A DNA stretch of 64,000 nt from GCF_055900595.2 NZ_CM148325.1; one strand, 5' to 3'; shown: positions 60,936 to 61,043, counted from the stretch's first letter. The notes: a model not told the origin generated them from the letters alone. Program-made: numbers and translations.

Positions 60936-60944
60936 TGCGCACAA

Positions 60945-60972
60945 CAGCATTCCCTTACGGGAATGCTGTTTT
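60945..60972 (+). terminator. rho-independent terminator after the sinI-like gene
   Basis: cagcattccc-ttac-gggaatgctg followed by tttt; a second perfect 13-bp hairpin lies at 60975-61009. Confidence 0.7.
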
Positions 60973-61043
60973 CGCCTGTTTTGCTTAGCGACGCGTTAAG
61001 CAAAACAGGTTGATGTTTTGTTTATCATGCTGGAGTTTTCTAC

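Follow-up and report, generated by a model that had tools for sequence, protein, structure and literature searches.

The sinH-sinI-ratA genes form what the literature names the ila cluster, a relative of the Salmonella CS54 island (PMC12928451). SinH-type translocators have been proposed to take Rat-like proteins as substrates, on the analogy of ZirT/ZirS/ZirU (PMC4943183, PMC6714894). According to a review that cites Shea 2022, sinH is co-transcribed with sinI; the statement made there on co-transcription does not mention ratA (PMC12525524). A published comparative study depicts the cluster as an operon (PMC4943183). The island has been reported to be under LeuO control, and H-NS has been implicated (PMC6714894). 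SinH is being pursued as a vaccine antigen against ExPEC, and the cluster contributes to colonisation of the urinary tract and the gut (PMC9937491, PMC12928451).

The window considered here is a stretch of 64,000 nucleotides (GCF_055900595.2, NZ_CM148325.1). It is E. coli sequence: its identity is 99.4% to E. coli EC42405 and 90-95% to another 743 complete E. coli genomes. The island starts at window position 57695, and the gene order, as annotated in the matching E. coli locus, is der-yfgJ-sinH-sinI-ratA-like-xseA. The RefSeq annotation of EC42405 names sinH, a SinI family protein and an adhesion-domain protein. The yfgJ product is a double zinc ribbon protein, sinH encodes an inverse autotransporter, and the ratA-like gene is an adhesion-domain gene of about 8.1 kb (8085 nt by RefSeq in EC42405). 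With the sinI stop ending at 60935 and the ratA-like ATG at 61044, the gap between the two genes is 60936-61043 (108 nt), which is the interval to which the original prediction, made from the sequence of the window, had assigned its hairpins. A Shine-Dalgarno sequence of the GGAG/GGTGG type is kept about 8-12 nt before the ATG in most of 17 orthologues; it is weaker in E2348/69 and Escherichia sp. E4208. The features of the junction are collected in Table 1.

Table 1. Features of the sinI-ratA junction, in window coordinates (hp1 and hp2, first and second hairpin)
Feature	Position	Strand	Remarks
sinI-like gene (SinI family autotransporter-associated protein)	59943-60935	+	stop TAA 60933-60935; EC42405 match 99.4%
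hp1, terminator-like	60943-60970	+	repeat search: 12 bp, 60943-60954 / 60959-60970, 100% complementary
Short U-tract and conserved linker	60969-60974	+	TTTTCG in the window; TTTTCCG in most relatives
hp2	60974-61010	+	17-bp stem: 5' arm 60974-60990, loop ACG 60991-60993, 3' arm 60994-61010
hp2 core, 5' half TTTGCTTA	60980-60987	+	identical in 17/17 SinI-retrieved spacers
hp2 core, 3' half TAAGCAAA	60997-61004	+	identical in 16/17 spacers; P. faecalis has TAACCAAA
TTGA directly after hp2	61010-61013	+	invariant in alignment A2
U-rich tail after hp2, TGATGTTTTGTTTATC	61011-61026	+	E. coli-type spacers only
Shine-Dalgarno GGAG of the ratA-like gene	61032-61035	+	8 nt 5' of ATG 61044
ratA-like giant adhesin gene, 5' part	61044-64000	+	Pfam BIg21 and InvE_AD repeats; continues past the window end

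Two consecutive strong hairpins had been predicted between the sinI-like and ratA-like genes, and both are present. The RNA of 60930-61050 folds with an energy of -49.6 kcal/mol, compared with -27.6 +/- 3.4 for 200 dinucleotide shuffles (z = -6.5), none of which folds as well. Generic terminator-like patterns are not enriched in the region (9 found vs 8.3 expected in shuffles); both hairpins stand above chance by stem length, fold energy and conservation, not by pattern match. The core stem of hp1 is cagcattccc/gggaatgctg (60945-60954 and 60959-60968) with the loop TTAC (60955-60958), followed by tttt (60969-60972), and two extra A-U pairs lie at its base beyond the core stem. In the window this G+C-rich stem of 10-12 bp (-16.5 kcal/mol) with its tetraloop lies 9 nt after the TAA of sinI. 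The perfect 13-bp inverted repeat reported for hp2, cctgttttgctta (60975-60987) with taagcaaaacagg (60997-61009), is found as originally written; the repeat search gives arms of 16 nt that are 94% complementary, and the terminator scan gives 17 pairs with a 3-nt loop.

Orthologous junctions were retrieved through SinI protein homology, independently of the hairpins. In total, 151 SinI-family homologues were found; a contig search with a single SinI query gave 3 loci, and further diversity was obtained via protein matches and their contigs. The junction set comprises divergent E. coli alleles, E. albertii, four Pseudocitrobacter species, an unclassified enterobacterium, Salmonella enterica, S. 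bongori, Citrobacter freundii, Superficieibacter and Leminorella, and SinI identity to the window falls to about 42% in it. The sinI-ratA gap measures 108-127 nt across the set and 91 nt in Leminorella, and the same two hairpins fold in all junctions except that of Leminorella. In the alignment of 17 sequences (A2), 95.1% of stem cells are paired vs 86.9% after shuffling, and the covariation score is 0.328 vs 0.168 in shuffled alignments (0 of 500 reach 0.328), but since the sequences are related by descent these shuffle controls overstate significance and are not probabilities. The score is at most 0.10 when the pairing partners are slid, and this control, together with the many independent pair types, is a stronger argument than the shuffles. 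RNAalifold predicts both helices unaided. An alignment of 28 distinct variants (A3) gives the same picture; its extra members were found with a pattern containing the core of hp2 and are therefore uninformative on the invariance of that core.

The E. coli alleles of the whole sinH-sinI-ratA cluster (window 57695-64000; loci L012, L021, L022 and L023) are very divergent and occupy the same chromosomal site, with SinI identities to that of the window of 97, 65, 47 and 42-44%. One of them, L022, is mosaic: it combines a SinI with 47% identity to that of the window with a spacer (from hp1 on) and a ratA 5' end of the E. albertii type, which places a recombination breakpoint at the sinI stop/hp1. 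In Pseudocitrobacter vendiensis (L006 4362-5470), SinI is 97% identical to that of the window and the spacer is almost identical. Despite the different genus, this SinI is closer to the window's than is the common E. coli allele (about 95%), which suggests a recent horizontal exchange of the cluster. The yfgJ gene (window 57288-57503; L016 338-559; L018 338-550) encodes a Pfam Zn_ribbon_6 protein with NMR structures 2JRP and 2JNE. A Zn_ribbon_6 gene immediately precedes sinH even in C. freundii and Superficieibacter, in which a gene other than der comes next; Leminorella (L017) has neither a Zn_ribbon_6 gene at the locus nor a canonical hp2. After yfgJ and before the sinH upstream region, the window holds an 18-pair, very A+T-rich hairpin (57520-57558) followed by CTATTTTATT, which may be the yfgJ terminator.

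Across the orthologues hp1 begins 9-14 nt after the sinI stop, remains G+C-rich and keeps a tetraloop. Its stem sequence drifts freely (CAGCAUUCCC, ACGCCAUUCCC, UACCACUCCCC, GACCAUCCCU and others), and in A2 all of its cells (100%) are paired, with 6 of the 10 pairs changed on both sides. The UUUU after the stem is kept in nearly all orthologues. This run is followed by CG or CCG and falls below the at least 5 T in 8 used by the terminator scan; it counts four U, which drop to two should the A-U pairs at the base form. By a d'Aubenton-Carafa-type score computed with current energy parameters (d-score), hp1 reaches +9.7 in the window, and the values for 15 of the 17 orthologues lie between +8 and +20. 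The scan flagged hp2, not hp1, and thus disagrees with the d-score; judged by rule, both hairpins are marginal as terminators. In the E2348/69-type allele, hp1 is followed by UUAC in place of UUUU (d = -16), so termination at hp1 is not universal. Taken together, hp1 reads as a real but leaky intrinsic terminator. The earlier assignment of a terminator to this hairpin is thus borne out as far as its anatomy goes, since it lies directly 3' of the sinI stop with a covarying stem and the U run of nearly all relatives. A transcript boundary in the sinI-ratA gap also fits the statement on co-transcription in the review cited above, which names sinH-sinI only (PMC12525524).

In the E. coli O145:H28-type allele (L019 1966-2150; L020), a 185-nt element is found inside the 3' arm of hp1, at the equivalent of window position about 60968. 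It has REP-like palindromes, terminal inverted repeats and a flanking 13-nt duplication, GCAAGGGAATGGT; hp2 is kept. This element occurs in about 3 copies per genome in 5168 of 5426 E. coli genomes. In some strains with the insertion, sinH or ratA is a pseudogene.

The second hairpin is conserved in another manner. Its 8-bp core, which reads UUUGCUUA/UAAGCAAA as RNA, is accompanied by nearly invariant flanks (UUUUCCGC and GUUGA), and the linker TTTTCCGC is nearly invariant in both A2 and A3. The closing pair of the helix, G60974.U61010, is G.U in 17/17 sequences of A2 and 28/28 of A3. The variable parts are the loop, three apical pairs and five basal pairs; these pairs covary, and 5 pairs of hp2 are changed on both sides in A2. 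The UUUC of the linker can pair with the GAAA after hp2 (C-G in 27/27 and U-A in 26/28 sequences of A3), an extension that is built from invariant bases and therefore comes without covariation support. In six divergent loci, defined by a sinI 3' identity of 60% or lower and a non-mosaic junction, no neighbouring segment is as well conserved as hp2: its identity to the window is 66-82%, vs 55-60% for the last 300 nt of sinI, 35-50% for the spacer to the ATG and 57-59% for the first 300 nt of ratA. The hp2 motifs and their flank hold stop codons in all three forward frames (TAG/TAA, TAA and TGA at 60986-60988, 60997-60999 and 61011-61013), which may be a coincidence.

In the two stems of A2, G.U cells number 49 and A.C cells 2, an A.C cell being a G.U on the opposite strand. 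The + strand folds better than the - strand in 17/17 sequences when both hairpins are taken and in 16/17 for hp2 alone. Scored with the covariance model, the + strand reaches 71-94 bits and the - strand no more than 38 (87 vs 34 for the element of the window). The excess of G.U and the better folding of the + strand show that these are structures of the sense-strand RNA.

As a terminator, hp2 of the window is borderline when considered alone, and it was flagged by the scan. Of the first 8 nt of its tail, 4-5 are U in the window, in two further E. coli alleles and in P. vendiensis; elsewhere the tail is of the GUUGAAUUACG type, with 1-3 U of 8 in the remaining 13 lineages. The d-score of hp2 is negative in 17/17 orthologues, at -18 in the window and down to -61. 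Since the U-rich tail is limited to E. coli-type spacers, hp2 is not a conserved terminator; in these spacers the tail could provide some added termination. The U-poor tails and negative d-scores, set against a core that is better conserved than the rest of the spacer, indicate that hp2 is conserved for something other than termination; in all probability it is a control element not described before, and not a second terminator. The tandem terminators of the original prediction thus do not extend to the family.

A promoter of its own had also been ascribed to ratA, and for this the junction leaves no room. Only 33 nt separate hp2 from the ATG, the Shine-Dalgarno sequence included. No sigma-70-like site was found on the + strand over 57000-61732, and in the spacer read by hand no -35/-10 pair, leaderless arrangement or sigma-54, sigma-32 or sigma-E-like box fits. 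Among the orthologues, the distance from hp2 to the conserved Shine-Dalgarno sequence is 18-35 nt; that from the conserved TTGA to the ATG is 29-44 nt, and its variability excludes a fixed -35/-10 geometry. Conserved promoter hexamers cannot sit in the stems, because these covary. With nowhere for a promoter to lie, ratA most likely depends on read-through, and hp1 would then be an attenuator setting the ratio of sinH-sinI to ratA, not an insulator. No TSS or Term-seq data for the sinI-ratA junction were found in the literature searched.

Several other arrangements of the region were considered and rejected. The RfaH ops element GGCGGTAGNNTG has no match with at most 1 mismatch beyond window position 31857, and thus none in or near the island. 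For a terminator/antiterminator attenuator, the sole alternative pairing is that of the hp2 3' arm (60997-61007) with TGTTTTGTTTA at 61014-61024 (11 nt, 91% complementary), a partner that is not conserved outside E. coli-type spacers. The sinI stop overlaps an ATG (TAATG), which opens a 17-codon frame (window 60934-60987) ending at the TAG in the hp2 5' arm. Neither the frame nor its ATG is conserved in other lineages, so the frame is probably meaningless and a leader peptide was discarded.

The 35-nt palindrome pattern of hp2 occurs once in the window (0.00 expected). The 53-nt hp2 segment, compared by BLAST with 5426 E. coli genomes, is present in 752 of them and only at this locus. A degenerate pattern (the core with TTGA) gave 66 matches in metagenomes, about 46 of which are sinI-ratA junctions; the remaining 20 or so are unrelated AT-rich chance sequences in which both hp1 and the flanks are absent. 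Over 345 kb, the covariance model detects a single copy per locus; neither the window nor any of 26 loci holds another, and the 3' side of ratA in a Salmonella contig of 13 kb has none. As partners of the core elsewhere in the locus, the TTGCTTA/TAAGCAA heptamers scattered around yfgJ and sinH were considered and rejected as not positionally conserved. Against Rfam 15, the E. coli and Salmonella spacers gave only chance-level matches (E = 1.8-8.9), far below the gathering scores. The second hairpin is thus an uncatalogued and deeply conserved candidate cis element in a virulence-adhesin cluster.

The reading given the greatest weight, which falls a little short of an even chance and is put forward tentatively, is that of an intercistronic RNA module in which hp1 is a leaky attenuator, ratA is expressed by read-through and hp2 is a processing or stability element of the ratA leader. 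According to it, hp1 would end most sinH-sinI transcripts, leaving them with a 3' hairpin cap, and a fraction would read through. The ratA gene would be expressed from this fraction, and hp1 would set the ratio of the translocator genes to the giant adhesin gene. As hp1 begins so close to the sinI stop, its folding could be disturbed for a moment by a ribosome that is completing sinI; such disturbance would be a plausible source of regulated read-through. The sequence-constrained stem-loop hp2 would stand at the start of the ratA leader and, with the UUUC/GAAA extension, would form a helix of about 22 layers. Its role would be one in mRNA processing and stability: a cut either in the exposed U-tract or within the long helix would part the two messages, and the 8-kb ratA RNA would then start with a protective base-paired 5' end. 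The exposed GUUUU between the hairpins resembles an RNase E site. This processing and stability role of hp2 is held with moderate-to-low confidence. It leaves the invariant 8-bp mid-helix unexplained, which points to sequence-specific recognition, and such recognition is nearly as likely as the processing and stability role.

The explanation built on recognition keeps hp1 as an attenuator and makes hp2 a riboregulatory site, at which a trans-acting factor would bind the invariant core and the C.U/G.U base and would control translation, Rho access or decay of the ratA message. Loop, outer stem and spacer drift around an invariant core, closing G.U and CCG/UUGA flanks, a pattern typical of sequence-specific recognition, and hp2 is confined to a single junction. 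However, what RNA-binding proteins usually recognise are loops and bulges, and the loop of hp2 is not conserved; the varying distance from hp2 to the Shine-Dalgarno sequence makes direct occlusion of the ribosome site unlikely. Candidates for the factor are an RNA-binding protein, a specific RNase or possibly the island-linked YfgJ. The association of the Zn_ribbon_6 gene with sinH under changing upstream neighbours, and the joint lack of this gene and of hp2 in Leminorella, speak for YfgJ; the link is based on that one negative case, and yfgJ is presumably also present in E. coli without the island (K-12). As a complete account, riboregulation is considered rather unlikely. A bolder formulation is possible but doubtful: hp2 would be a dedicated cis-acting RNA element of the two-partner inverse-autotransporter cluster of Enterobacteriaceae, whose core and C.U/G.U base would be read by a factor (a protein or a nuclease, conceivably the adjacent YfgJ) that gates RatA relative to SinH/SinI.

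The remaining explanations differ from the module favoured above in what they ask of the two hairpins. Full insulation of ratA by two tandem intrinsic terminators, with transcription from its own promoter, was the original proposal. It agrees with the terminator-like hp1, with the hp2 of the window lineage (17-bp stem, tail with 5 U of 8, flagged by the scan) and with the mention of sinH-sinI only where the review speaks of co-transcription (PMC12525524), but the U-poor hp2 tails in 13 of the 17 lineages, the negative d-scores everywhere, the shortness of the sequence before the ATG and the lack there of a sigma-70-like site or of a conserved -10 at a fixed distance from TTGA make it improbable. 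Equally improbable is that neither hairpin terminates and that both are decay barriers or processing signals within one sinH-sinI-ratA message, setting the stability of its segments in the manner of intercistronic hairpins in other polycistronic operons. The U-tracts are short or interrupted in both cases, the scan and the d-score do not agree, both hairpins are stable sense-strand structures, and the cluster has been drawn as an operon (PMC4943183); a plain decay barrier, however, has no need of the UUUU that is kept after hp1 in most lineages despite the changes of the stem, or of the classical distance from the stop codon at which hp1 lies. The least probable is a double-stranded DNA operator, TTTGCTTA-N8-TAAGCAAA, bound by a dimeric regulator or serving as a transcriptional roadblock after a weak terminator. 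The perfect inverted repeat with its invariant half-sites and the control by LeuO, with H-NS implicated (PMC6714894), would suit it, and a protein-binding palindrome had been offered as an option in the original prediction. The data disfavour it: the spacer-proximal and outer pairs of the palindrome covary outside the core, which a half-site model does not need; the G.T 'mismatches' are frequent and one-sided, one of them, the closing G.U, being invariant; the + strand folds better; the half-site centres are 17 bp apart and so face different sides of the helix; and the E. coli genomes hold no second copy to suggest a regulon. Binding of a protein to hp2 as an RNA hairpin is possible. Among operator and site consensuses (SlyA, PmrA, RcsAB, GacA/UvrY, IHF, LysR-type T-N11-A, boxA and others), none is known to match hp2 convincingly.

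The terminator hp1 alone would be routine. A deeply conserved RNA element at the sinI-ratA junction offers an easily mutated handle on the expression of RatA relative to its presumed translocator, and hp2 is a candidate new entry for RNA-family catalogues.

Among known elements, REP/BIME sequences are likewise intergenic, palindromic and found after stop codons; REP are multi-copy, whereas hp1 and hp2 are single-copy and of unrelated sequence. The contrast is seen at the locus itself, where a genuine multi-copy element has inserted in hp1 of one allele. Intra-operon intrinsic attenuators are closer to hp1, with its G+C-rich stem of 10-12 bp, tetraloop and U's 9-14 nt after the stop codon, and with a downstream ratA that has its own Shine-Dalgarno sequence and no promoter. 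Unlike them, hp1 has only four U, then the conserved CCGC, and hp2 is without a U-tract in most lineages. In a general comparison, the pair resembles the intercistronic hairpins that serve processing and stability in polycistronic mRNAs: both hairpins are stable sense-strand stem-loops, they separate cistrons of an adhesin cluster that probably requires its products in unequal amounts, and a U-rich single strand lies between them. The 8-bp mid-helix invariance of hp2 exceeds what such hairpins are known to need. The extended helix, counted as 4 bp (UUUC/GAAA), one conserved C.U mismatch and 17 bp, gives the 22 layers by which hp2 is similar to RNase III substrates (helices of some two turns, about 20-22 bp, at times with an internal mismatch), by the length criterion only. 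The protective 5' stem-loops of long-lived mRNAs of the ompA type stand at a primary 5' end made by a promoter, whereas that of ratA would need processing; a cut in the U-tract would give the ratA message a comparable base-paired 5' end, formed by UUUC/GAAA and hp2.
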